Assembly (NCBI GenBank): GCA_051294905.1
Contig: CM119372.1
Span: 13,704,001 to 13,768,000, forward strand
Origin: Botryllus schlosseri
Taxonomy: Eukaryota
Reading direction: 5' to 3'
Length of the DNA stretch: 64,000 bases
Each line of letters opens with the position of its first letter. The stretch's first letter is position 1. A model generated the notes under the pieces. The model had not been told where the DNA came from. It worked only from the letters and a program-made list of their open reading frames with translations, and searched no databases. Positions 3,086 through 47,000 of the stretch are shown here, piece after piece. A program made the position numbers and the translations under genes.

Positions 3086-4067
3086 TTGGGTTCACGAGTG
3101 ACGGATGGTATCGATACTCAAATGGACATGAATACAAATACCTCACTGCCGAGACAAATTACGGTGCTCAGTCATCATTTTGCGCAAGTCATAACTCGCG
3201 TCTCGCGACGGTTGCAGTAAGGAATGGCGAGCTTGGCGGGTTGGTCATAGGAATAAGTCTGAATGCTGTGAATCCACACGACTGGCTCAAATACGTTTCA
3301 GTATACGAAACATGGCAATTTGTGTAACAGTTACTTCAGATGATTGGAGTCGATTGTAGACTGCTACTATAAAATGAAAACAGGCAATGGCAACGACCGA
3401 TTTTACGGCTTCGTTCCGCTTCGCGGAGGCTGTAGTCAGAATGGATTTGCGTAAGAGACTGTGGAATTTCTGGCAATCCAAAAGTTATCTTCCAGAGCGC
3501 AGAATTTACTGAATCTGGTCGTGATCGGAAGCTACAGTCGCTGCGATTTCGAAATTCTTTGTTTTATTTTGCTACAATTTATACCAATATACTTGTTTTT
3601 AACAACAACAATTTGCCATCTTAAAGGTATTCGTGTCAGACGTTGCAGAATTAGCGTCATATTTCCACATAAACTGAACCGTTCATTGAATTTGAGCCAA
3701 TAGCTTGAACCGAGTGTACGGGAGTCTTTCATGGATCTCCGCCATTTATATTCGACGTTACACCGAATGAACGAGATGCATAACTGAAATATTTGAACTT
3801 TTCAGTTTCCAAAACACTATTGGGGTTCCAGACTTTACAATGTATTTCGTCGGGGGAACAGATGCCATTGTCGAAGACACGTGGATTTTCCAGGATTCCA
3901 TCGTGATGACTACTGATGATATTAAAGTGTGGGCTGAAAATGAGCCTAATGATGACGCAGTTCCAGATGTTGAGGATTGCTTAGCATGGTTTAAAAATCT
4001 CAACAAATTGGGAGATACCTCATGTTCAAATACGCTTTCAGCCATGTGTGAGCGACCAATTGCGTAA
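3086..4067 (+). CDS. C-type lectin domain protein (EPN type), last two exons 3086-3239 and 3806-4067; 5' part not identified
   Basis: Spliced translation GWYRYSNGHEYKYL...FCASHNSRLATV...YFVGGTD...TWIFQD...WAENEPND...EDCL...LGDTSCSNTLSAMCE*: four CTLD cysteines, WIGL-like FVGG, EPN; phase-compatible splice sites. Confidence 0.88.
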
Positions 4068-13614: not shown

Positions 13615-14623
13615 CCACAGTCTAAGCATGACATGCCTATTCGCCTTTCTCATGGAGACGTCGCTCGTTGGGTATTCCGCAACAGTATTCATAATCAACC
13701 GATCGGGCATCGTCAGCGGCACTTCCCGGCCAACTGATGGCTACCCGCCACGGAAGAGCATGGATGTTCTTTTGCCATTTTACCGATTTTGCGTACGGCG
13801 CCGCCCATACACCTCGTCACGTGTTACGCCAAGCATATCTTATACGGACCCTTGTACGCTTCATAGTTCAAGGAATAATCAAGCCCTAGGGGTAGGGATA
13901 TGCCACAGCCTCATATATGTTTGCTACTAAGGCAGCAGTCGAAGCACTACTGTGTCTTTCCACCCCACTCAAGGGGTCCGACGACCACTCAGGCTGCCCT
14001 TCCACAATCCACACTCATATTCTAGATCAGGGGTCGCCGTGCGGTGCCCACCGACCATTGGTAGCCCGCAAGGAAAAGATGAATCGCCCGCGTGTCTGTT
14101 CTAAAAATAGATGGAGTAACAGCCCTCAACAGTGAGCTTTTACATAATGAGATTTATTTATTTAGCTGTTCATGTGTAAATCACACAAACATGTAACTTG
14201 GTTACTCCCGCCATTTACCCGCTTCAAATTTTAGTGTTTTTTGGCTGTAACTCGTTATGTGTTCACAATAGAGAAAACTTTCTTTTCAATACAGATATAA
14301 TCATGATGTTTCCGCAGATTTTGAGCTATATATCATGACTAGGGCGATTTTTTTTTGACCTAAAAACGGAAGATTTTGACCTAAAAAATCTAAATTTTGA
14401 CTTTTTTTGACCTAAAAAAACTGAAATTTGACCAAATTTTGACCTTACGTATGCAAATTAGGTGTTTTCGCACATAATGTCAAAATTGTACTACTTATCT
14501 TCATTTCTGGTTGGAACTGTCTGTCCTTACAAAGTAGATTGGCCTGAAAAAACGTTTTGGGAACAAAAACTAGCAAATTTTTACATGAAAAAACTATTGA
14601 ATAGTATATTCATACTGAAATGA

Positions 14624-14657
14624 ACCGGAATATTTTCGGCTGACACTCGTCAGGGGT
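14624..14657 (-). ncRNA. Minimal type I hammerhead ribozyme (inverted copy)
   Basis: Reverse complement accc-CTGACGA-gtgtcagcc-GAAA-atat-TC-cggt; identical core, one stem I mismatch. Confidence 0.6.
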
Positions 14658-14915
14658 AATCGTCAGCAACCAGTAGAGAATTGGAAAGAACATGGTATAT
14701 CAACAATCGTATCACAAAATATGACGTCATTTGTGTGACTTGGAGTGGACTTTTATCAAAATACACCAACCAAAACTCTGTCAACAAAAGGAGTTCGTGT
14801 ACCACCTAAAATAGTACATTGAACGCTCTCTCTTTCATGCTGGTGGCGTCATATTTTGTGATACGATTGTTGATATACCATGTTCTTTCCAATTCTCTAC
14901 TAGTTGCTGACGATT

Positions 14916-14949
14916 ACCCCTGACGAGTGTCAGCCGAAAATATTCGGGT
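14916..14949 (+). ncRNA. Minimal type I hammerhead ribozyme
   Basis: accc-CTGACGA-gtgtcagcc-GAAA-atat-TC-gggt: core CUGANGA/GAAA/UH, 4-bp stem I, palindromic AATATT at stem III; predicted cut after C14945. Confidence 0.7.
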
Positions 14950-16291
14950 TCATTTCAATATGAATATACTATTCAATTGTATATTGAAGTTCTGTACCTC
15001 CAAGAAGCCAATGAAAAAACTAGTATTTTAACGAAATCTGGCCCTATGAAGAATTCCAGTAGTTACATTACGTATTATGGTGGAAATAATTAAAATTTGT
15101 TGTAGTACAACAAACGAAAGATAGCTTACTTTTCTACATTCTCGGGTAGAAAGTGTTTGTTCTTACTAAGTAGCTTGCCAATAATGGAGAAAGAACGTTA
15201 AACAGCAGCGGTTGTTGGCTGACAACACTGAAGTTGTGTGCACACTGCTGGTGACACACCGCGTTGCTTCATTCTGACAATGTTGTCTATATCACAATTT
15301 TTCAGCTTGCGCTTCTTGATATAAGAATCATGCAATGTCCAAGCAGTCTTGCTTCAGTTAGGATATTGCGGTACGTTGACCATAAAACCAGGTCACTATT
15401 TGTTTCATTTGATCGTTTATGATTCACAATGAGCAGACGATGGGTCGTTTACAACGGTAGGCCTATAAAGTAGGCTACAAGCTGTAAAATATCAAGTGAT
15501 AAGTTCACCGACAGCGCAAAATCTACGATACAAACGAAATTCAGAGGTCAAACAATGTTTGACTTTGTAACAATTTTGACAAATTTTGACCTACCGCTAC
15601 AATTTTGACCTAATTTTGACTTTTTTAGACATGTCAAAAAATCGCCCTAATCATGACTCTACGACCAGCGGTGGCCGAGATGGGTCATTTTACCCCCTCA
15701 ATTGGGGGGTTGCCGGCTGGAAAATGAGGGTAATTCCCTAAAGTCGATATTTATTGAAGTTTTGGTGATTTGTCAGGATTTAAGAACCCCCTTTTTTCGA
15801 TTTAAAAAAAAGTCATTTTCACTCCACCCTATAATGTAGAATGCTGTTTTAAGCTGTTTGAAGGAATCTTATAGTGCGACTTTCTGCAACATTTTCGATT
15901 TTTCATTAAAGTATTTTCGATTTTGGTGAAATACACGGCCAAATTCGACTGAAATACCGCAAATCAGCACTGAAGTAATGCTCTTACGGGTATTTCAGGA
16001 GCTGAGCGGGAAAGTGGACCTTTTTTTTAGTCAACCAAGCAAAATGTGGTCTTTTCGTGCAACTTTTGTGAGAAAATAAATGCAACTTTTGTCAAAAATA
16101 AATGCTACTTTCCACGGATTTAACTGCGACAAAAACTTGCCCTAATAATAACTCATTTCAAAACTTACCGCGCAGGCCATGGGTTGACCATCGCTGCCTT
16201 CTAAGTGAAGAAAATTAATAAAATAATTAAATATTAATCATTTTAATTATTATTATTAATAATTAATAAAATAATTCCGAACACCAATACA

Positions 16292-16297
16292 TTTATT
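16292..16297 (-). promoter_or_regulatory. Candidate polyadenylation signal (AATAAA) of the minus-strand gene
   Basis: tttatt on + strand, ~370 nt downstream of the predicted stop. Confidence 0.45.
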
Positions 16298-16665
16298 GCA
16301 ATTGACATGGGGCGAAAATCCCTCTTACCAACCAAAAAGGCCACTCGAACACTGTGACCTCACTTGCGTTCTCTACATCACAAAGGATCCATGACGTTCG
16401 TCAAGTTCGAATCTATTAATTTAAAACATCACAAGACTGCGATAGTGTCACAATCCAAATCACAAATTATTAGATGGGGAGGCGCCTGCAGCCAACTGTC
16501 TATGCCACATCTCAAAGATACCAGTTAATTGTTCAAGTTCCACTGCCAATTCGGTTTCGCATAAGTAGGTATTTTGATTTATCCAAGCTCGTACATCCAG
16601 AGTGATTCCGCCATGACAAGTGGACAGAAACAGTAGTTTCAACTGAAGATCTCCAGACTTTCCCG

Positions 16666-19600
16666 CTACATTGTTTCCGAATCCGTGGTCGCCTCCGTGT
16701 CAGTATCAACTAAAAACAAGGCGACATTGAACAACACAAAAAGAGACTGGATATTTTATTCTGCAAGTTACGAACATTTAACAGGAATCGGTGTGAACGG
16801 ACGCCTGAACGATTCGGCGTCCGTCGTATCGGTATCGATATCATTGAAACGATCGTAGTTGAAGCCTTGTTGTGGAGCGCGTGGAACAGGTTTTGGCTGA
16901 TGAATGCAAAATATTATTGTAAATACCTGCCAGTACCACAGCCATTAGAACGCAGTAGCAAAATATTTTACTGGCGACAAGGCGTGGATTGATGATTGGT
17001 TTGATGTTACCTTCTTTTTCCAATCAGCAACGCTATATTATTATTCATTATCGATCTTTAACACAAAGTAACGATGGCTCGGTCATTAGATCAGACAGGC
17101 CGCAACAAAAAAAATAAAATCAGTGTGATGAATTTACATATACAGTAATCAGAAATCAAGTCCACTCCATAACCGCTTTCGTGGTTGCCATAATGCCTGG
17201 GATCAATTACAGTTGGTCATAGTCAGCATTGTTATTCAAGTAGAATTAGCATGGTGAAATTATACTCAACGAGTATCAAGTAGCGATTTCCTGACATGCT
17301 ATAACTGTACTCGAGCAGAAGCATAAAATGAAAGGCCCTAAAAGCACTGACGTAGTTTTAAAATGTGGATTTGGACAAGGTGTCTCATACTTTTACTCGT
17401 ATAACATAAAATGCTATTTCTGAAATTCAAAGATCCATCTTCCTGACATGCAGAATAACTGATGACACCAAAATAGAGCAATTTTCAAGAGCAGGGAGAG
17501 AAGCTCGTCGGTGTACCGACCTATTTTTAGTAATCAGCGTCTGTAATGGGCTTGGGTTTTATTTAGTCAAAAAATCAAGTAGCAAGCAGACCGATATTAG
17601 GCAGTCTGGCCGATGTGATGACCTTCTTTTAAAATTTTAGTCGGCATAAGATGGTTAAGTAGTAGTAAACCGAAACTTGGCAATACGACAGTCAGATGGA
17701 AGGTGTGACCTTTTTTTAGTGATGTCATCAACACACTTTGACGGTAACACTGAATAAGGTGCACGAGTCAGAGCTACAACGTTCAAGGAGTGCACCACTC
17801 AAAAAAGAAGAGCACTGTACGTACTAGAGTACTCTCTGGAAAAGTAGAAGTATTTCGTTACAGATCACCTCTGCATAATTGTGTTTTCTCTATCTAAAAT
17901 TTTATCGATACTCTTTAGCTATCGATAAAGCCATAGTTCAAGTACAAAACTACGATGGATTTATATATTAAGCACCATGCATGGAAATAACATTCCATCA
18001 CAACCAACGCACACTTTTCTTCTTCAGAGTCTTTTCCGGTTTTCTGTCTTTCTCCTTCAGAGCAGCCTCACGCAATTTTCTCTGATCAGTCCTAAGAACA
18101 TTGCAAAAGGCCTGGTCAGCGAGGGCGATAACATGGGACGAAAAGCGCGCGTGTACCAATACTCCCTCGTCATGTCCAACAAATGACTGGCCTCGTCAAT
18201 CACGCGAGACTCGCCCGAAAGAATGAGGTATCGCTCCAGCTCGATAATGACCTCCAGAGAACTCGTAATGGACAGTGCGTCCGCGTCCACCTGAGACAAC
18301 AAAGCAGGCAACGTCAGCCAAGAGGTGTTCAGGTGTTCAAAAGTTCTTCTACTTTTAGGAAGTACACAAGCAAGTTTCGCCTACTTGCATTCCCTACTCA
18401 ATTGGTTTTGTTGTTAGATTAATTCAGTTTCAACAGTTTTTACGGGAAACTGCTTACTTTTATAATTTGGATTTTTAAAAGTAGGAAGTAGTTCTGGGAT
18501 AAGTTTGCATCATTATTACGAGTGTAGTTGTCATAGCAACCACGCGAAGTAGACCTGGTAACCGGATATATTATCGAAGATTGCACCTGGCTAAATAGGT
18601 GACTGGCGGGACTTTTCGTGTGCCCTTCTCAAGATTTAACGGCACAATGAGTAGAAATTTACGACACCACTTCTACTTCTTTTCAAGTTAAGACTACTTG
18701 ACCGCTTCTGACAATCGAGCGCACCCTATCGTTGACGGACAGGCTTTCCACAATGGCCTGCGAAAGCTTAAACAGGATCACCGCCAGTTTCCGCGTCTCC
18801 TTTCTGTCGTCCGCTGGCAAATCGCAGGCCATCTTGACGAGCGGGACCAAGGCGACGCAATTCGCGATGGGCACGTCGTCCAATGCAAGGCTGAGGAGAG
18901 CTCCGGCTACCTTAATGTACAAAAATGCGAATATCGACACAGTACGCGAGACATGAAAAATACCAAGGGCGATGACAAAGACATAATCAGATAAGGTGAT
19001 AATATGTATGTATATTGAAAACAAACCAAACATTGATTTGATAATATCCTACACGCATCAGAAACGTTGATGAGATTTTATAAGCTGGTCGATCTCAATA
19101 ACCAATTTGTCAAAACTAGGAATAAGAGTCGGTTGTCCCGATTCTTAGAACAAGATGGAAATTTGAATCCGCGAACAGCGATCTGCTCATAGATATACTA
19201 ATTCTACTTTTGGTTCAACTCCAGGATATACAATGCTGACATCATCATAACTATGTTAGCTTGAAATACGCTTCTACAATATATAGATAATATAAATATT
19301 TGCACACATATAGAGAACGACTCTACACAAATTGGTTTTTCCAAGTACAGCACTAAAAGAAATAAACTTGCTGGAGTGGCCAATCTAAAATCACACGTGT
19401 GATACGAATTAAATTACGCCCGCTTTGACTTTCTGTGGTGTTTAGTGGTTGAAATCTTTCAAAATGCACGGGCTTTGAAGTCGGACTGTTGCGCCAACAA
19501 CGAAATAGGAAAAAAATAATAATTATCATCGTGAAATATATTGAGAAAAAGTTTAATCAAGTCCCTGCGGTAATCAAATTTTTAGTAGGCCTATGCATTT

Positions 19601-22600: not shown

Positions 22601-25600
22601 AAATCCAAAAATAAACAGGCCTGCCGATAACCCTAATACATTCAGCCGATATTCAAAAGAAGTTGGATGTATACATAAGCACATTTTCAAAGCTTCAGGG
22701 CATTTATTTGAACATCTTTACAGTCATTGTTATACTTGAACATGAAATGAACTAGAACGGCTGCATCTGGACACCCGTAAAGTGTAAGCTATATGAAATA
22801 TATCATTATTCTCAGTTTAGCGGTCCAAGATTATGGTTTTCTGACTTCCTACCATCGATAATTCTTTCAAATTGTGATATCGTCTCGATATTATCGGCGA
22901 ACCGATAATCAGTCGGACTCTAGTATATTCCATCTTTAGACATCTGGTTAGAATAACAGGCTTCCTGACACAAATTTGCGATGAATAAGCATGATATCTC
23001 CAGAGTTACTCTCCCTCTGGGGATTCGGAAGTACGCAATCATGGCCCTTGAGCTCCATCTCGCATTGCGTAGAGATGGAAATTTATGCCATTTGATTAGT
23101 GGTAATCTACTTTGAAAAGCGGCATGCTCTGCACAGCTCATAGATAAGCTTAAAAGCATCCTTCCATCCTCGGTTTTCTAATATTTTCATCTGAAATTCT
23201 GGCTTGGTGGAGTGTACCAAGTTTTCGTAGTGTTTTACCACATCACATTTGTTGAAGACGTTGGATTGAAGAACTCTGATATATGCTTTTAAGAATCGAT
23301 AATAGGATGCTAGCAACCAATATATATAGTGGTTTATCACAATCCTTGCTCATCATTGCATTTTGCAATTCACAACAACGCCATTCTGCCGTCCAGTATC
23401 AACAGATGCTGTGTCACATGTGAAATGACATTTCAAATTTTCCAATGCATCATATTCCTCTAATCGGTTTTCTAGACTGCTGAAAATATCTTGAGTTGTT
23501 CTACTTTTGCCTTTTCGAACACCCAGTTTGATTTGTGTCAGATAAATTGAAATTATACGATAAATGCAGTTTACATCTAAAATCGAAATTAATAATTATT
23601 TATTAATTACTTAATTTTGATTATAAACAAGAACACGATAGGATTAATTTAATCTGAGCGATCACAATTTACTAAAATAATATTTTAAATATTCGCAATT
23701 GGAATTGTGTCAGTCAAATTGGGAATCAGTCGCTATATATATTATATAGTCTGTGTCTACAAAAAAAAAACTATCCTTCATACAGTGAAAACTGGAAAAT
23801 TATTGTGCGGGAGGTTTTTGTTTGAACAGTCTAAAGTTTTGTGAATTTTGAAATCAGGACACAAAAGTTCATAATTTGTGACTACAGGACACACAAAATT
23901 TATAAAAAAAATCCAGTCATAACCCTAACCGGCACCTGTCCGCAGGCCAAAGGTTGTCGACCATTGGCCTAAGAAGTATGCTTGCTATTCCCAATCATAC
24001 CATGTGCGGCCGGTAGTCATTGGCAGTCAGGCCTTTCATTAGATACCCTCAATCTATGGGATTGTGCGTGGTCTTCCACCGCGCCATTTCAAATTCAACT
24101 AGCTCAATTTTGCTTAGTGGGGAATTTAGGCTTGAATATTGGTCAAACGTGTCCAATCGACTAAAAGGGTTTGAAACCAGTGAGACATGGTGAAGACTAA
24201 ATCGAAAGTCGTAAAAGACCCAGTGAGTTGGGATACATTGGTGACAGCAACGTGGCATTCCAAATACAACGTACCAATATTTGAGGAATTTTCTGTCTTC
24301 TCTATATGTCTAGTAGGTGCCGGTAGTCGACGAACTGCACCAGACGCTTTGTTGCTGACATCACACTGCCCAGACATCACTTCGACATCGTCCGCGTCAA
24401 GCTGGGACAGGCCAGACACGCCTCTTTTCATGGGCGCATCAAAGATACAGGCATCAGGTCGTTCAACGTCCATGACATTCCGAGTATCCTCCAAGATTTT
24501 ATCTTTGTCTTCCGGTTCTAAACAATAAATTATAAGCATATACGCAATTATGAAGACAAAGTGTTGAAAGCACGAGTTTTACACAGAGCCACAGAGGAGA
24601 GACTTTCGATACACACAAACATTTATATCCCCACCACACCAACCATAAACAACCTCACCGGATTGGTACAGCGGACTAAAATATCATGGTGTCATATGCA
24701 CAGATTATGAAAACCTTCACAGTTAATGATCTAGACTTGAATAATTGCAGCTCAAAATATCTAGAACAGTGGTTCCCCGACACATCGCCCCTTATCTAGC
24801 TCGACGCAAGTTTTTGCCCCCATATTTTCGGAACCGAAGAAGAGGGCATATAAAAGGGAAATTTTCCGCAACTAAATTCTGATAGCTGGTGAATTGACTA
24901 CAAAAGAAGGTCATTTTTTCGAAATGTCTCCCGAAAGACTCGTCTTCACGTATAATCGGTGGAGTTCATGTTTTTTTTAGTCAACTTTCGAGGGAGATTC
25001 AAAAGAACCCGTTTTTCACGTGCCTATTAATTAAATATAGCCGTTCTAACACACTATACGATGAAATGTCTGTCTTATCGACGACAATTATGGTTTCGAT
25101 ACTATTTTTCACTGTGGAAACCTTGAAACCTTGATTGGCCGTATCACAGCATACGAAACATGGTACAAAGCTACGACCGTTACTCGAAATATCCCATTTC
25201 CGAAGTCATGTTCCTCCCACAATATTGTCACAAAGTGAAATGAAATCGTTACGTCGAAATGATACCAAAGTATAAGTAATGTGATGAACAACAGGCATTA
25301 TATTCTTTGTGGTGGCATAAAAGGTACATATTTGAACCTTGAAATCTTATATACTGTTATTACGTCATAATCAGAGATACTCGAATACTCGACTCAAAGC
25401 ATATTACGTGACTCAGAATCGAATCACTCAGGTACTCGATTTTGCCCAGCCCTACTTAGCAGTCTTTAGTCTCGAGTCATGCAAAATGACTTGAGTACAA
25501 GTCGAGTCAATACAAAAATTGACTCAAGTCAATTTACGCATTTGAAAAGATGACTCGAGTCAAGTCGAGTCACCAAAAAATCGCGACTCGAGTCAAGTCA

Positions 25601-26035
25601 TGACTCGAGTCATTACAACCCTGATGTATGCGCTATATTCAACTGCACCACTTCAAAAACAAATTGACTATTGACTGACGGGGTCTGCTGGATCAAAAAG
25701 GTTGGAATCCAGTGATCCATACTAGACTGACACGACAGCTCCCTGATATTTCAAATACAACGCACCAGAAATTGAAGAATTCTCTTTGTTTTCCTCACAA
25801 CTAGTAGGCGGCGGTAGTCGACGCATTACACCTGACTCTTTGTTGCTGACATCGCAACGCCCAGACGTCAGTTTGGCATCATCGAGTTGAAGCTTGGAAA
25901 TGCAAGACGTGGGGCGTTCAACCGGTAAATCAACGTTACTAGCCTCACGTCGTTCAATGTCCTTGACATTTTCCGAATCCGAAACCGCAAGTCGGTCCGT
26001 AGTATTGTGCGAGATTTTATTTTTGTCTTCCGATT
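16666..26035 (-). CDS. Probable 3' exons of TDRD12 (duplicated linker exons, helical region, acidic tail)
   Basis: Ten open exons with GT-AG borders and compatible phases, ending ...GFNYDRFNDIDTDTTDAE...DTDTEATTDSETM* (TAG 16668-16666). Joining to the upstream part needs a phase 0->1 exon (candidate 38274-38247). Could alternatively be a separate gene. Confidence 0.6.
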
Positions 26036-29000
26036 CTAAATGAAAATTCAGCGACATCAATGCGAGGTGTACAGGCAGAGTGCTGGATTCTGGAAGTCAG
26101 CGCAGTGGTCATCTGCAGAGGCTAGCCTCTCGATACGCACAAACTTTTATATGATCGTCACATCAACCTGAATCAAATTACCTTCACCGCATTGATTCAG
26201 CTAACTGGAGCATCAAGGCGTTCTATGTATAGAAAACGAGGTATTTGCATGCATCTCAATCGAATAGATCGGTGGTTCCCAAAATTTTTTAAGCTACTGC
26301 CCCCCCTGGACAACGAATAAAGTACCAACGCCCCCGACCCCCCCCCTAAATGATAAAGCGAAAGTTGTTCCGTAAATACTATAATCAACAATAATACATA
26401 TGAAGCTGTTGCATATGTTATCATCATCATCATCATTATTATATTGGTTTGATATCTTAGAAGAACAATCTGAAATCTCCACGTCCGGCTATGTGAAGTT
26501 TCTGCTGTTAGTCAGAAGATTTGTCACGGCGCTGAAAGCACGTTTTAATAAATATAAGCTGGGAGCTGATGAGGAAAAATTCAACCCGACTCCAGGTAGA
26601 GTATTTCCATATGATTCAATTGTGTAAATGTATCCAGAAGGATTGATAGTAAGAGATATTGAACTTTGATGTGAGCGCAAAATTGTTCTGCAATGTAGAC
26701 GGCTCTTATTCATTTCATGCTCGGAAATTTCACGGACTGTACTGATTACACTGCGCAACAATTTTGAACGAAAAATTTGTAGACTTTGGTTGTTTATGCT
26801 AATTTTGACGTGCTGATTCCAATAATGCCGCTGGTTTTCTTCTATCACGTCAAGTTTTTGCTCTACGACATATGCCCAAAATATGCAAATTTCCACGATT
26901 TTAGCCACATTACTTTTCCATACCATATAAAAATCCATACTTTTACCATATAATAAGTTATATAGCGAAGGGATCAATTGAATTATAAAGAAAAAAGATG
27001 CTGGTATCGATCTAGGCCGATGCTTTCACCCATTTTCGGTTAGAGGATGCAATCATCCGATGATATTTCACACACATATTTGATGCAAACTGGAAGATAT
27101 AGCAAGAAAATTAAACATTACTTTTACTATCAGCTGTAGGTCCAATGCCCCATTCAGCTTATCCAGTGTAACTTGAAGCTCACATACGCTCGATAATTTG
27201 GATCAATATGAAGATCCTATAGTTAGCAGGCCTAATGATGAATATTTTGAAATCGAATATGATTCAGAACGTTATTGATCTGACATAAGCTTTAGGACTA
27301 GGAATAGAAATTTTCAGAACTTTTAACATCCTTACGAAGTGAGAAAAGATTCCTTGGCAAGGTGGAGAAGGTATCTCACTTTGGATCATGAGAATCAGCC
27401 TTTTCTCAGTAGGCCTGCTTTCGGTAGCTTTGTGTATTGCATTGTACTGGCATTGGCATTATACTGTTACCATGGATTACTGGAGCAGTTGGGAATCCCG
27501 ATTTACAACTCAAGTGAATGGCAAATGCCTATAGGTAGCTGAAAAAGGATCCGAAAGTGTGGCATTCTCCAAAATGGCAATGTCTTAGGTGCAGTAACAA
27601 TTGCACAGTCAGTTAGTCTTCGTCAATAATACAGAAGCATTGAGAATCATAGGCTCCGACTTTAAATTTTTTACGAGGTGGCGAGGTCATGTGATGTCAT
27701 AATTTCTCCATATAGATGACGTCATCATCACACTAAAACGCACTTTACTACATGCCGCTGGTGTATGTGCAGTGTGCACTTGTGCAGCGTAAAACCATAG
27801 TGTCCTATATGGTGTCGACACAAGCAAATCTCACGGCTCAGTGAAATTGGTCTACGTCACACTTTCCATTTTGCTGAAGGCAATTTGAGGGTAATTTTTG
27901 ACTGACTTGCCGAGCATCAAATTTGATGAAACGGGTATCAATCGAAAGCTGCGGCTGTACTCACTCAAGTAGCTAGTATAGGAACTATAGTCGGCGACAT
28001 TGAAACCTAATTCCGAGAAGGCACAAGAGTGCACCCACTGAGTTCAGCGTGTTATGGACAAATGGACTGAAAACTAGATATTCACAGAAGCGAAAACGCC
28101 AATACGAGACCGTTATATGCAGGATACATAGAGAATATTATAGTTACACAGAAGTATAAATCAAATATATGTGGTTGCACTGCTGTATCAATTCTGACTC
28201 AAAAGGTCCCCGGCCACCAGAGAAACCCGAATCGCGATTTAATAACATATGAAGGTATGCAAATATTTAATCACCGTATTTCTCATGGCAATTCGGCTGT
28301 TTGCGATACAGGTGTTGCTGTAATTGAACCGGGTTTGTAATATAAAGTAGTATTGTAATATATGCTTGATTATAAAGTAACCATTGAAAATCAAGGGTAT
28401 GGATTTTGAGGTATGCGAGTGATCTGCAGGTTTGAATCCGTTGGAGCTAACATATGTTAGCTGACTATTGCTTGAGTATCAAACTAGACAACTTACAGAA
28501 TTATGGGTCATTAGTAGGGCGGTTTTTTTTTACCTAAAAATAATAAAATTTTGACCTAAAAAATCAAAATTTTGACTTTTTTTGACCTAAAAAAACTGAA
28601 TTTTGACCAAATTTTGACCTAACGTATGCAAATTAGGTGTTTTCCCACATAATGTTAGAACTGTTCCACTTATCTTCATTTCTGGTTGGAACTGACTGTC
28701 CTAACGAAGTAGTTTGGCCTGAAAAACGTTTTTGGCTTAGAAACAGGCAACTTTTTACACGAAAAAAACAACATTTTAACGAAATCTGGCCCCATGAAGA
28801 ATTCCAGTGGTTACAAAATGTATTATGGTAGAAATAATTAAAATATTTTGGAGTACAACGAAAGATACTTTTCTACATTCTTGGGTAGAAAGAGCACGTC
28901 CTTACTAAGAAGCTTGCCAAGGACGTTCAACAGCAGGAGTTGTTGGCTGACAACACTCAAGTTGTGCGTATACTGCTGGTGCTGGTGACACACCGTGTTG

Positions 29001-32000
29001 CTTCATTCTGACAATGTTGCCTACATCACAATTTTTCATCATGCGCTTCTTAATGTAAGAATGATGCAATGCACAAGAAGTCTATCTGCATTTAGGATAT
29101 TGCGGTACGTTGACCATAACACCAGACGATTAGCCGTTTACAACGGTAGGCCTATAAAATAGGCTAAAAGCGGTAAAATATCAAATTATAAGTTCACCGA
29201 CAGTGCAAAATCTACAATACAAACAAAATGCAGACGTCAAAATTTTTTTGACTTTACGAAAAATTTTGACGAATTTTGACCTAACGCTACAATTGTGACA
29301 AAATTTTGACAAATTTTGACATGTCAAAAAAAAACCGCCCTAGTTATTAGCGTAAATTTGGACCCTGAAACTCGCACTATATTTGTCCTGTAGAAGCAAC
29401 ATCAGTTCAAATCAACCAAATATAACAGTGCAAATGTTTATTTGAAGTCTATTGATTTACTTTCGACTGCTTGTGGTTTTTGAAACGATTTATGCAATAA
29501 AAATAAAATATTAAAAGTAGTGGTATTATGCGGGTTATGAGACAATGTGGTGGGTGCCTAACCCAAAATCTTGACGTGATAGAGAAAAACGGAAGTGATT
29601 TTTGAATTCAGAGCCCAAAAGTAAGTCAAAATCAATTGTCTGATCAAAGTCAACAAAAATTGTGTTGACCAGTGTTATCCTATCCAAAAATGAACTTTTC
29701 TGATTGGAATATATTCTGAAATCAGATCAGACATGGGGTAATCGCGATTAGTAATCGTAATCGATTACGACGATTACAGCATTTTCAAGTAATCGTAATC
29801 GCAATCGATTACATTCGAAAAAAATCCAAAGTAATCGTAATCGTAATCGACTACTTCGCATATTTAATCGATTGTTTTGTGAAAGAAAGATTACTTTTTA
29901 TTTGTACAATGAATATGACAAATCCGAACATTCGAGAACAAGGAAGAGATATTATACTAGGTTATTGATAACAATCGGTTGATTTTCGAACGCCACTGCT
30001 CATTATTACGTCAGAAATATTAGCTTTGCTCGTCCTTGCGAAAGAAGTATCCACACGTAGTAAATATATATTCGATGTACATTGTTGTGTGATTGTTAGA
30101 ACAGTGTATGCCATGCTGTATATCAGGTTATCAATACACTCCAGACGCCACTACCTCGCAGCAAGATAATAATCACCACTCTGCCTAGTTTCAAATAGTA
30201 ACTCATGTATTGATGTTTGGTTATGCTTATAGTTAAACGCAGTTTGACCGTTGCTGCTTGGCGAGCAGTAGGCCTGTCTATGGAGTGTACGTATGTATTG
30301 CACGTACACCGGACAAAGATTTGAAGTTTTGTACTCGTCAAATAAAACATTACGCTGCGTTTATATATCATAACCGAGCCGTTCTTTGCCGTTTCTTTTA
30401 ACGGTATAACCGGCAGCTTGCAGTATCTGTATTAAGTGGAAGGTAGAATTTTAAGTTCACTTTATCTTATCCTCATATGAATACTTCAAACGGGCGCAAT
30501 CGTTATTTCACAATTCTTCACTCGACATTTATACCTGCCGCCATAGCCCCCCGCTTATGCACCATGTAAGCGTGGGCATAGGCGCCGAACGCTAATTTTC
30601 CTTAGGCATGCGAGTTCGATGACGTCACAAAGGAATGACGTCATGATCCGACGGAATTGATATTTAGGGATAATATAGCATCAATTCATGAGGGTTAAGT
30701 GCCTGCATAAATGCCGATTATGCAATATCTGCGTGTTAACAAACTTGCGCGTATGATAAGCTTGTCAACGAGTCCGGAAGTGCTGTCAATTAGCGAGTCC
30801 CTGATCGCTAGCGAACAATTAAATACGCCGCTTATCAACGCGTATTACGTAACCTCGGCGACGATTTGCGCAAGGCAAAATGTCAGAGTTGTTATGGAAT
30901 CTGTTCTATAATGGCACTGATTTCAGGTTGTTCCAACCTTTCCCGTCTTTTACAACTCAAGCCTTGACAGTTGACACACATCTTCTGATGATTATGTTTA
31001 GGTATTAGCGGGATTCACTTACGCATGCACGGCGCACTCACAATCGCACATGTCTGCGGACATTCGATGTCATTCAGGTTAGCGATGCCGCTCTTTAATT
31101 ACAATCGCTAACCAACAAACACCTAACGGCATTGTCACCAAGCCATCGAAAGATTGGAGCTAGCGCATGCTAGGCTCGAGAGATGGGAGCCAACGCATGC
31201 CTGGCTCTAGACGCGATAGTTAGCCAGCGATGATATCTTTCGTACCAGGCCTGTTGCAGATGCGATTGTGTAGGCAAGCGATAATATCGTGTGCGCCAAT
31301 GCAGATGCGAATGTGCAGGCAGCGATGGCACCGGGCTTACTGCTGATGTGATTGTTCATTATGCTCAAGCGAGTGAAACTAGGCTTGTAGGAGACGCGAT
31401 AAAGCAGGCAAGCGCCCCAAGCAATGATTGCCGAACGCACGGCAATCAGTGACACAATTTCGCGCTCATCTCAGCGGGAGATCGTGTCGCGTTACATTGT
31501 GCACAGACATATCTCGTTAATTGGCAACGCGATTGTAGCTAATTGGCCGCGCGCAACGGGTTACCTCGCTCACATAAGCGGTAGTAGGTAATGTCGTAAA
31601 CGGAAATACATTGCGATTCGTTCTAAATAACACAATCGGGGATTATGCCGATTCATGTCGAACCGAATTCTAGGCATGCCGCATGCCTAAAAAAATGTCT
31701 AGGCATGCCTGGCATGCCTTGCATGCCCAGGTTCGGCGCCTATGAGCGTGGGTTGTAGGTACAATCAGAACCAAAACAGCAATTCGTCCCCCACTCCAAA
31801 CGTTGGTATTGGTAAGGTTGTAACCAGGGCCGTAACAGCACTTCGTCAGGCCCCCCCCAAAACGTTGGCCTTGGGCCCCCCATGGGGTGATAACCCTAAC
31901 TTCTGGGGGGCTTCGCCCCCCAGACCCCCCTTTGGCTAGACGCTTTTTGACGCTATTTCACATCTCCACTGGGTGTCCTTAGATCAGACGGCTTTTCCCG

Positions 32001-44000: not shown

Positions 44001-47000
44001 GGCCGCCACCCCATGATTATGTCACTCGGCGCCTATGCAACTGCGGACTGTTGATATACATAGTTCTTTGGAATACTCAACCAGCTCCAGACGAGTAGGA
44101 GTGTTCGGATTAATTTCAATATGAATATACTGTTAAATTGTCTATTGCAGTAACGATTATACAATTTTAGCATTTACCGACTTGTAAAATGGTTAATGAA
44201 CATCAAAGAGATTAACAACTCCGACGTCCAACACCACTACGAGAGTTCGAATTCAATGTCGAGCTCGAACGGCCAACAATAGTTAGTCATCGCACTTCAT
44301 CCTAGCCAAGATATGGCCATACAAAGCACTCAAAACGATTTGAATTGTTAAGGTTCAAAACAATTTGCATGCCTTAGATTACACACCCACACTAGGTATG
44401 TAATCAAGTCAGAGTAAATTCAGTCAAGCCAGTTTGAACAGGCTCAGCTTGCTTATAGCGCGACTTCAGAGGATCTCTTTACAAGGGTTCAACCAGTAAA
44501 AAAATGCAATAAACTACCAACTCGGTATTTCGTGCTGTCGAATCGGGGAAGATTTTATGAAGTATGGTGAAGGGATTGCACCAGTAGACCAATAGTATTT
44601 TGTAATCTAATCAACTCTCAGGAAACATCTGATACTTCACGCTTGGCACAAAGAATATAGATTGAGAAGTGTTGCGCGATTAACACTCTGCTCTCCTGTT
44701 CGTAATCCTTAGGTTGTTCTCTAAAATGATATATTTCTTTGAATAATCTGCAACCAGTTCAAACACAATTCATCATGGCGACGTTAAACAACAATCGGTG
44801 CGGACTCAGTGTTGTATATATGAGAAAGGCCGTTGTGAAATGTCGTCGTGGCTTTACATGATTGTCATCGTCGATCGAGTAAACGGGGTGTCTCAAATTA
44901 CGCCCAGAAACAACATGTGAAAAGGATACGATTTTTTCTGTGTAAAAGCAGAAATCACTGAGGTTGGCAATTATCATAAACCCTAGGCTCATAATTATTC
45001 AAGGATCGAGAAAACAGCTTTTTTGTGACACCTCTCTGTACTTGCTAGTCGCCGCTCAAATAAACTCTACGGATGCTGGACAAAGTGATGTAAGTACGAC
45101 AAATCAAGCACCAACCTCAAAAACTCCTTTATCTCGTCCGAAATCGATTCACGCCGATCTTCCAGCTTCTCGATATTGCCCGCTGCATGCTTCACGGCCT
45201 TGCACACGCCGTAATAGTGAGTGGCGTCGACTACATGAGTGACCCGGATTTTCACTTGCCCAGCGGTAGGCACCTGTAACACACACTTTCGCATTCATGG
45301 AATCCGAATTCAAGTGGGGAGCTGTCTCTCTTACAGGAGGAAACTTGCTGTCTCGGTTCGCTTTATCGGCCGACGACAACTCGTGTCTATATCTGCAAGC
45401 GGCAATGTTCGGGCATTCGCCCACAAACTGAAGGGTGGGGCACAGCGGTATCGACGATTTGTCGCCCTTGCAAAACATTCAACTTGAGCGTCATTGAAAA
45501 AAAGTGATAGGGAAGGGAGACTCACTGATAACGCCTTTCTAGCCATGGACAAAAGACCCTCAGGAATCGGTTGATTGACGCGTTTTAAAAACTGGAATAT
45601 ATCAGCCGCGCCGTTGCAGTTTTTCTCGTCAATCAGAAATATCGATCTGGAATTCGAAACAGCAGATGCATTAACGGGGCCTGGCACCGTCGGGTATGTC
45701 CGAAAAATTTTGCTTCACTTTTCAAAACTGCAAAACACGACCTCAATGGTCTGGCCACGACTGGGTGTTTATTAGGGTTGTCCAAAATTTGGAAAATCTT
45801 ACAAATCCTCCGTTGTAATGTCTTATTCTATAGATTATTGATAAAAAACGACATTAGGCCTAAAAGAAGCTCACAAGGAGGCCGTTAAGATTTCGTGCAA
45901 AGCGTTTGAAAGTAGCTGCTGAAGAATGGGCGTGCCACCGACCATAGAACGGCGAGAAGACTAGTAATCACGAAACCACGGCTCTTGATTGGCTAATCTG
46001 CTATGCTTCAATGACCACGACAGCAGCAGCTTGCTGATTAGGTGATCGCGGAGTCTGCTACCGGCGGCGATTCTGAAAGCGCATTGTATGTAGGTTGACA
46101 GATTATGATTTAGGATTGATTCAGGGTATGTTGAGGTACGAAATACATGATGAACAAACCAAATACATGATGAACAAACCACAGCTGCTTCACAAAAACG
46201 TCTAAAGCATGACCGCTTTACTGTGAAGGAAACCGCCGTAGCCTAAATGCCTTGTTTTCAACGAGGGAAAGCATAGGTGCTTATGCAAGTGGCGATGGAT
46301 TCCTAGTTTCAGAACGGATATATCATTATTGAATACAAATATAAAGCTTAACAACGACACTATAATTTGTGTGATCTTATTGGGCTCAAGTTGTGGTACA
46401 TAGTTGAAGTTGTGAATGCTCTAGGGATCGGCTGAATCAGACGGTTAGGCCTGGCACTTATCAGATGTTTACAGCAAATTGAATTCACTTGTAAGTGTTT
46501 TCAAAGTCCCAAATGATGCCGCAGAAACAAGGTGTAAATGTAAGCACACACATACTGTGCTTGATATGATATACAAACTATGCTGGATACTATGCACTAT
46601 GCAGTATTTTCTGTGCTTACCTTTACATTCCCTTTCTGCGCGTTTATTAAGGACTTTGCCATATCATTGACATATAATATCCAGCATAGTATGTGCTTAC
46701 TATTACACCGCTTTCCTGCGTCATCATTAAGGACTTTGACAACACTTGCAAGTGAATACAATTTGATGTAAGCATCTGAGAAGTGCCAAGCATAACCCGC
46801 CGATTCTTAGAGCATTCAAAACTTCAACTATGCACTACCACCTGAGCCCAATAAGATCACACAACTAATAGTGTCGTTGTTAAGCTTTATACTTGTATTC
46901 AATAATGATATATCCTTTCTAAAACTAGGAATCCATCGCCACTTGCATAAGCGCCTATGCTTTCCCTCGTTGAAAACAAGGCATATAGGCTGCGGCGGTT

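Follow-up and report, generated by a model that had tools for sequence, protein, structure and literature searches.

The window analyzed here, a 64,000-nucleotide stretch of the Botryllus schlosseri genome, contains at positions 14340 to 15649 (plus strand) a composite hAT-like MITE with TAGGG termini, which is delimited by terminal inverted repeats, carries a Penelope fragment inside, and is present in about 40 copies in the genome. The element is flanked by identical 8-bp target-site duplications (14332 to 14339 and 15650 to 15657). The Penelope fragment is an insert of 414 bp (14597 to 15010) bounded by a 12-bp direct repeat, the left (14585 to 14596) and right (15011 to 15022) copies of the Penelope target duplication. 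In most other composite copies this repeat is 13 bp long (from 14584); it is 12 bp at this locus because position 15010 is A here and C in most other copies. Both the DNA-MITE host, recognizable by its terminal inverted repeats and 8-bp duplications, and the 12-bp duplication around the insert had been proposed in an earlier sequence-only reading of the window and were confirmed.

The insert is a hairpin formed by an inverted partial pLTR (left arm, 14597 to 14729, minus strand) and a sense pLTR (right arm, 14844 to 14976, plus strand), which pair over 133 bp with 4 mismatches; the arms reported earlier are thus real, and their coordinates (14597 to 14730 and 14844 to 14977) were off by one. 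The folding energy of the insert was −258.7 kcal/mol (z = −30.6), and none of 100 shuffles was equally stable. The spacer between the arms (14730 to 14843, plus strand) encodes, as had been suspected, the last codons of a Penelope open reading frame (ORF; stop codon at 14812 to 14814), followed by the start of the noncoding pLTR. It is 1 base shorter than in an intact copy, and 2 nt of microhomology are found at the inversion junction. A tail of approximately 33 nt (14977 to 15009, plus strand) is present at one end only, and the first codons of the Penelope ORF lie at 14960 to 15009 (plus strand), with the ATG at 14960.

Each arm contains a hammerhead core (CTGACGA-N9-GAAA-ATAT-TC), at 14916 to 14949 on the plus strand (right arm) and at 14657 to 14624 on the minus strand (left arm). 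These were the only two matches to the strict core pattern in the 64-kb window, one per arm, in agreement with the claim of a core on both strands; a scan of the locus against Rfam gave no hammerhead family at an E value of ≤1. The right-arm copy is an intact type I hammerhead with a 4-bp stem I (accc/gggt closure), a core at 14920 to 14926, a one-pair stem II (G14927-C14935), and a palindromic stem III, and its predicted cut falls between 14945 and 14946, 14 nt 5′ of the ATG. Closure by accc/gggt had been assigned to both cores; this holds for the right arm, whereas the left arm reads accc/cggt. The resulting C·C mismatch (base 14627) adjoins the core as the first pair of stem I, at the cleavage site, and is common to 24 of the 28 parsable composites.

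The Penelope parent and the anatomy of the insert

The 33-nt hammerhead had 3,270 exact matches in the 496-Mb genome versus 0 for the reversed control. Matches to the variant with the stem I mismatch (44 in the genome) were considered as candidates for further composites and rejected: 13 were left arms of composites, and the 21 of the other 31 that were examined were all separate, older Penelope copies, none of them in this MITE. An intact Penelope parent, as the sequence-only reading had expected the genome to hold, was identified at locus L063 between two pLTRs, in a tandem unit of 2,692 nt. Its single long ORF (848 amino acids from the first Met) matched RVT_1 (E = 7.8e−9) and carries near the C terminus a GIY-YIG-type motif (Y..G.T...L..R...H) with a flanking C-x-C; Pfam GIY-YIG matched 10 of the 38 aligned proteins, and the L063 parent itself was not among them at an E value of ≤0.05. 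With its single ORF, in which RT is joined to a GIY-YIG-type domain at the C terminus, and with its partial tandems, the parent resembles EN+ PLEs of the Penelope/Poseidon type as described in PMC8557442 and PMC11167929, a likeness to be read with the single Cys seen by eye in the RT-EN linker, a region that lacks a Zn finger in the Penelope/Poseidon clade, and with an RT tree whose rows contain no named Penelope/Poseidon reference sequences. The fragment at the locus is 94% identical to the L063 parent, with one 8-nt and one 1-nt gap, and therefore stems from a slightly older Penelope subfamily. The Penelope origin, the pLTR hammerhead with a palindromic stem III, and the inverted partial pLTR that had been read from the window were all borne out by this comparison.

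Among the first 100 of the 3,270 matches, neighboring hammerhead pairs within 3.5 kb were divergent in 13 cases, on the same strand in 3, and convergent in none; the pairing of hammerheads at this locus is the routine 5′ inversion of the Penelope family. The ends of 59 Penelope copies beyond the predicted cut fell mostly into two classes, at 31 to 37 nt (13/59) and at 66 to 76 nt (25/59), while 3 ran on into the ORF and 18 were scattered. The left arm at this locus stops about 31 nt beyond the predicted cut (the short end class) and the right arm 64 nt beyond it, i.e., one of each class, which accounts for the one-sided tail of approximately 33 nt. The 414-bp insert is thus a 5′-truncated Penelope element with a standard inverted pLTR and such a tail. 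An inverted truncated copy with a tail of 30 to 40 bp, exactly this layout, was described by Craig et al. (PMC8557442), and Frangieh et al. linked the tail with the use of two start sites by the RT (PMC11167929). The adjacent inverted 5′-truncated copy, the one-sided tail of 30 to 40 bp, and the pLTR hammerhead are all shared with the EN+ PLEs of these two reports, whereas the locus retains a 414-bp remnant only.

Judging from this anatomy, the Penelope protein would have primed reverse transcription at an AT-rich site of a MITE of approximately 880 bp, on both DNA strands and from two RNA start points lying about 33 and 70 nt beyond the ribozyme cut, with the result that the site was duplicated over 12 to 13 bp and received a copy in sense, a short one in inverted orientation, and a tail on one side. 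Together with the genomic distribution described below, we consider it very probable that the hairpin is a 5′-truncated Penelope copy that was likely inserted once in the hAT-like MITE and has since been copied by DNA transposition, and that the copy in the window likely has no activity as a ribozyme.

The neighboring gene and transcripts of the insert

Minus-strand exons at 40 to 55 kb of the window matched DEAD (E = 6e−6), CCCH (7e−4), and Tudor (2e−3) domains, an order that we take to be compatible with TDRD12, and TDRD12 is a plausible identity for the neighboring gene. A homologue search with the DEAD exon and a PDB search with a Tudor-region frame gave no match, and 25 of the 28 frames searched against Pfam had no informative match for this gene. 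Candidate exons at 16 to 26 kb are putative members of the gene with the DEAD and Tudor exons; the plausible last one, on the minus strand, ends near 16670, and the insert lies about 1.65 kb beyond it. With this distance in mind, the locus might, as the sequence-only reading had suggested, act on read-through RNA of a TDRD12-like neighbor, either through cutting by a ribozyme or as a 133-bp double-stranded RNA (dsRNA) trigger for editing or small RNAs, the hairpin being so stable that any crossing transcript would yield dsRNA. We consider such a role unlikely, and the cutting of read-through RNA in particular. The hammerhead that is in sense on the gene's strand is the left-arm one, which is mismatched beside its core, and poly(A) signals come before the MITE in the direction of the gene (AATAAA at 16297 and another at 16247). 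Read depth was zero over 16248 to 17100, a stretch that includes the putative last exon itself, in all four RNA runs of the same species label (3 to 6% of each run used), and the joints listed for these runs include none that spans the inversion junction of the composite. RNA reads of the Penelope pLTR were plentiful, and 86 of the 87 reads over position 14738 carried the parental base and not the base of the sub-lineage to which this locus belongs. The same composite, moreover, is found at about 40 unrelated loci.

The two hammerheads lie on opposite strands and point outwards, and an RNA of the locus has at most one of them in sense. Same-sense neighbors are required for cleavage as a dimer by way of the palindromic stem III (PMC4209133; PMC6466107); the copies at this locus therefore lack a dimer partner in cis. 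Whichever way a transcript crosses the insert, the antisense arm is made before the sense arm, so the hammerhead would be expected to be trapped in the 133-bp duplex. A transcript starting within the spacer could fold the right-arm hammerhead, which is still intact in most composites. In MITE-borne copies, rare substitutions occupied 11 of 476 cells (2.3%) in the right-arm core versus 80 of 3,537 (2.3%) in the nonribozyme arm, and 23 of 441 cells in the left-arm core versus 84 of 3,360 in the rest of that arm; by this test, which has low power and includes a few rearranged copies, the ribozyme core shows no visible constraint.

Read ends at the predicted cut were also recorded. In run X24, 7 of 160 reads ended at 14945 and continued into what is presumably sequencing adapter, a number below the threshold and possibly including duplicates, and no stop at 14945 was present among the rows listed for runs X22 and X23. 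The stops in X24 are a weak hint of the predicted self-cleavage.

Copies of the composite element

A search of the genome with the inversion junction identified 37 loci, with MITE sequence at all 37 and on both sides at 36. An independent search with the 3′ junction gave 37 matches, 3 of which were at new places, and the number of composite copies is therefore about 40. Where both ends could be parsed, the 8-bp duplications were identical in 21 of 22 composites and comprised 19 different sequences. The target consensus, scored on the 38 copies that parsed out of 68 (composites and empty MITEs together), was nTnATnAn (T2, 36/38; A4, 36/38; T5, 38/38; A7, 38/38). The MITE family is large, with at least 570 exact left termini, and empty sites were found as 60 exact matches and at least 200 matches within 2 mismatches. 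The insert is also absent at 28515 to 29342 (plus strand) in the window, which had been put forward as the empty site; this copy belongs to a diverged subfamily (88% and 77% identical) and has an 8-bp duplication with one mismatch, and the exact empty sites are elsewhere.

The MITE has hAT-type features, namely, terminal inverted repeats and 8-bp duplications, and lacks a transposase. An autonomous hAT element with the termini of this MITE was not found in 30 of the 150 hAT-domain loci, each taken with 1.5-kb flanks; 2 of these 30 loci contain inserted copies of the MITE itself. The label “hAT-like” is therefore based on the termini together with the 8-bp duplication, which are established grounds for it. 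Sequence variants among the composites are nested. In four composites, which have the parental base at 14738, neither hammerhead is damaged, whereas the left-arm mismatch is present in 24; the remaining 9 did not parse. Seven composites form a subgroup with further changes in common, on the MITE side as well as on the Penelope side. Intact composites mostly differ from the majority sequence by 1.2 to 3.5% (about 2%). The insert had been described as a young module; with about 40 composites, each about 2% from the majority, and 94% identity to the intact parent, it is not a young local one.

Since the same insert with the same junctions is found at each of about 40 loci, each with an 8-bp duplication of its own, it was likely captured once and copied by DNA transposition. 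We infer that Penelope retrotransposed once into the MITE and that cut-and-paste transposition then multiplied the composite. As indicated by the distribution of the copies, the composite would have moved as a DNA transposon, by a putative mobilizing enzyme, into nTnATnAn sites with formation of 8-bp duplications, and most copies would derive from a sub-lineage in which stem I of the inverted hammerhead had been lost.

Spread via RNA was weighed against this history. The composite contains an intact sense hammerhead and the 3′-end region of Penelope, and animal retrozymes have been described as Penelope derivatives (bioRxiv 10.64898/2026.07.22.740005), so it might be a retrozyme-like or SINE-like nonautonomous retroelement that relies on its own hammerhead and the Penelope enzyme. 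This is very improbable: the copies end exactly at the MITE terminal inverted repeats with 8-bp duplications, as empty MITEs do, and not at Penelope ends, tandem units are absent, and the core shows no visible constraint. The non-LTR retrozymes of that report share with the locus a noncoding, Penelope-related sequence with a type I hammerhead; they consist of tandem same-sense units, each with a hammerhead, whereas the locus has an inverted pair bounded by MITE ends. Repeated, independent retrotransposition into the same MITE site, which is AT-rich as preferred by the Penelope-family endonuclease (PMC11167929) and of which at least 200 empty examples are available, is the least credible of the alternatives and is largely refuted by the identity of three junctions (the inversion junction and both outer junctions) at 37 loci, in addition to which MITE-part and Penelope-part variants cosegregate and free Penelope copies vary in their truncation point.

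A single capture followed by DNA transposition, our preferred reading, has counterparts in other genomes. In the hobo-N families of the anole, which are nonautonomous hAT elements, a 520-bp Penelope insertion was captured once and multiplied by the class II element (PMC3014272), and in MER6 a SINE V domain is carried by a DNA transposon according to the same principle (PMC6887750). The Botryllus composite differs from both in that its passenger is an inverted pair of hammerhead-bearing pLTRs forming a 133-bp hairpin and in that it has only about 40 copies. The locus is thus ordinary and made of known parts, as inverted pLTRs, pLTR hammerheads, and Penelope pieces in nonautonomous hAT elements have all been published; of more use is the ribozyme variant of its parent family.

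A predicted pseudoknotted hammerhead in one Penelope clade

The nine bases between the two halves of the hammerhead core form only the G10.1-C11.1 pair, and the 7-nt loop that this pair closes (loop II, 14928 to 14934) is complementary to positions 14906 to 14912 (plus strand), just 5′ of stem I, which would make the latter the 5′ strand of a pseudoknot. The segment from 14900 to 14960 contains both strands. Relatives were drawn from 78 metagenome and 25 genome-collection loci encoding Penelope relatives, and in the nearest relatives with a pLTR the layout was unchanged and the letters were different. The pseudoknot strands read GCUGAC/GUCAGC in the Botryllus family, UCCGAC/GUCGGA in L121 and L122, UCUGAC/GUCAGA in L125, L148, L173, and their kin (in which the core begins with U3), and UCUAGC/GCUAGA in L120; in L138, the pseudoknot has 5 bp and the loop 6 nt. 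Over 11 distinct rows from four families (L138 and the duplicate L122 left out of the pair counts, and L190, in which the upstream strand is absent, left unaligned), 92% of pseudoknot cells were paired, with changes on both sides in 4 of 7 pairs of the pseudoknot and in 4 of 4 pairs of stem I. None of 500 shuffles reached the observed number of pairs changed on both sides, and slid controls paired at 25 to 41%. A single family supplies the majority of the rows, and decayed copies are among them, so that these changes correspond to about four independent covariation events. The G10.1-C11.1 pair was G-C in all 11 distinct rows, and 6-nt stem III palindromes were present in the Botryllus, L120, and L125 families.

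In a tree of the RT region (34 rows; L173, with a short match, was left out), the seven rows of the pseudoknot type and L190 formed one clade with a support of 100/100. The “classic” label of L190 stems from a separate fragment, and L190 also has a truncated core of the pseudoknot type. The other 26 rows were of the classic type, in which helix II is longer and one more base is present. The distance from the predicted cut to the first ATG, which follows it, is 14 nt in the Botryllus family, 3 nt in L121 and L122 (where the first ATG of these copies opens a short frame only) and in L123, L127, L148, and L173, 21 nt in L138, and 52 nt in L120, i.e., 3 to 21 nt in four of the five families. In the Botryllus family, loop II can also pair with the core, to which it is complementary, and this decoy is the best nested fold of the monomer (−12.2 kcal/mol), compared with −7.8 kcal/mol for the pseudoknot helix alone; the pseudoknot model therefore rests on covariation and not on energy. 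The covariation and the tree make a clade-specific pseudoknotted hammerhead well supported as a structural variant of predicted activity. Candidates for other hammerhead families with a one-pair stem II and a different loop III in the Botryllus genome (15 matches versus 2 in the control) were mostly decayed copies of the same family and were set aside.

The sequence-only reading had assigned these hammerheads to the published minimal type, which is correct for the type I core and the palindromic stem III, whereas the one-pair stem II with its covarying pseudoknot departs from the consensus. The minimal hammerheads that Cervera and de la Pena described in 2014 from PLEs of metazoans (PMC4209133) share the type I core, G10.1-C11.1, a short stem I, and a rudimentary, palindromic stem III, which implies that they cleave as dimers. 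Their consensus includes a helix II of 6 to 8 bp and one additional base at 9/10.1, features also seen in the distant relatives analyzed here, whereas the pseudoknot clade has a one-pair stem II with a 7-nt loop, no extra base, and a covarying pseudoknot. Pseudoknots were reported in all three hammerhead types by Perreault et al. in 2011, and one of type II, whose stem II is a single pair and whose pseudoknot has 6 bp, was fast (>1.2 per min) (PMC3088659). In that example, as predicted for the Botryllus hammerhead, the regions of stems I and II pair with each other in place of loop-loop contacts, but the former is a metagenomic type II ribozyme, whereas the latter is of type I, borne by a retroelement, and without a stable stem III. 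The word “pseudoknot” does not occur in the text of PMC4209133, and a pseudoknotted form in Penelope elements was not described in titles and abstracts on hammerheads and Penelope or in the text seen of PMC10085705, PMC6765202, and PMC6466107; with figures, supplements, and Lunse et al. 2017 outside this scope, the novelty of the clade is provisional.

The parent hammerhead is predicted to fold with a one-pair stem II braced by a pseudoknot of 6 to 7 bp between loop II and the 5′ flank, and its cut just upstream of the ORF ATG would need either the protein of the element or a same-sense partner joined by the palindromic stem III. The MITE would supply neither in cis; RNA transcribed across the insert would instead fold into the 133-bp duplex. 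The role of Penelope hammerheads has been described as unclear (PMC8557442), and the published minimal hammerheads of metazoans cleave poorly (PMC4209133). The hammerhead of the anole element cuts only with the help of the protein that the element encodes, and insertion in vitro proceeds without it (PMC11167929); in PAc of the anole, the cut falls 26 nt inside the ORF (PMC8557442; PMC11167929), whereas in the Botryllus family it is predicted to fall before the ATG. In some RNA viruses, cleavage just upstream of a start codon drives cap-independent translation (PMC13725137), and from this precedent the same role might follow for cleavage in Penelope. A tentative scenario, which we put forward as a possibility on the less likely side, is that one Penelope clade swapped a long helix II for a one-pair stem braced by a pseudoknot and so gained a faster ribozyme, which would cut 3 to 21 nt before the ORF and yield an uncapped mRNA that is translated, while the MITE would scatter dead hairpins. 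If this were true, Penelope hammerheads would gain a function. The pseudoknot clade, with its predicted cut just ahead of the ATG, an intact parent of high copy number, and compensatory variants that arose in nature, lends itself to asking if cleavage plays a part in translation or in processing, and the approximately 40 datable, unselected composite copies of one ribozyme may serve as its neutral control.

Target choice and size of the MITE family

The hAT-like MITE family, represented in the window by the composite copy at 14340-15649 and a diverged copy at 28515-29342, and elsewhere by the genomic loci L031-L104, showed an unusually strict preference for the 8-bp target nTnATnAn. Among parsed copies, T5 and A7 were invariant (38/38 each), and T2 and A4 were each found in 36 of 38. 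Most copies with an exact empty site (lacking the Penelope insert) were ~1,175 bp long, whereas the version that captured Penelope was ~880 bp. Outside the composite MITE, genome-wide matches of the hammerhead variant with the mismatch in stem I were skewed in strand within the assembly (8 plus versus 23 minus; n = 31), possibly by chance.

Other coding features of the window

A C-type lectin exon was identified at 3771-4064 on the plus strand (Pfam Lectin_C, E 8e-5). In the minus-strand gene region, the likeness between two open frames (24126-24578 and 25722-26096, minus strand) suggests an internal exon duplication.

Penelope relatives and recent insertions

Core position 3 was U rather than C (UUGAAGA) throughout a related Penelope family (L123, L125, L127-L129, L148, L173, and L190), in which G8, stems I and III, and the predicted pseudoknot were retained; this is a natural core variant of the hammerhead. 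L190 (positions 2400-2500) also held two overlapping classic minimal hammerheads on opposite strands, nearly palindromic. Twenty-five Penelope loci (L198-L222) lay within records titled bacterial or archaeal MAGs and are most likely animal DNA carried into the bins.

A decayed, older pLTR of the family that supplied the composite insert (44046-44151; 75-88% identity, core destroyed) lies inside the TDRD12-like gene span. At L061 (G000:C1:1043500-1049000), L062, L063, L064, and L074, the Penelope insertions are very young: their ORFs hardly differ from one another, and they are arranged as large head-to-head inverted pairs of up to 2.9 kb. Activity of their family looks recent or current.
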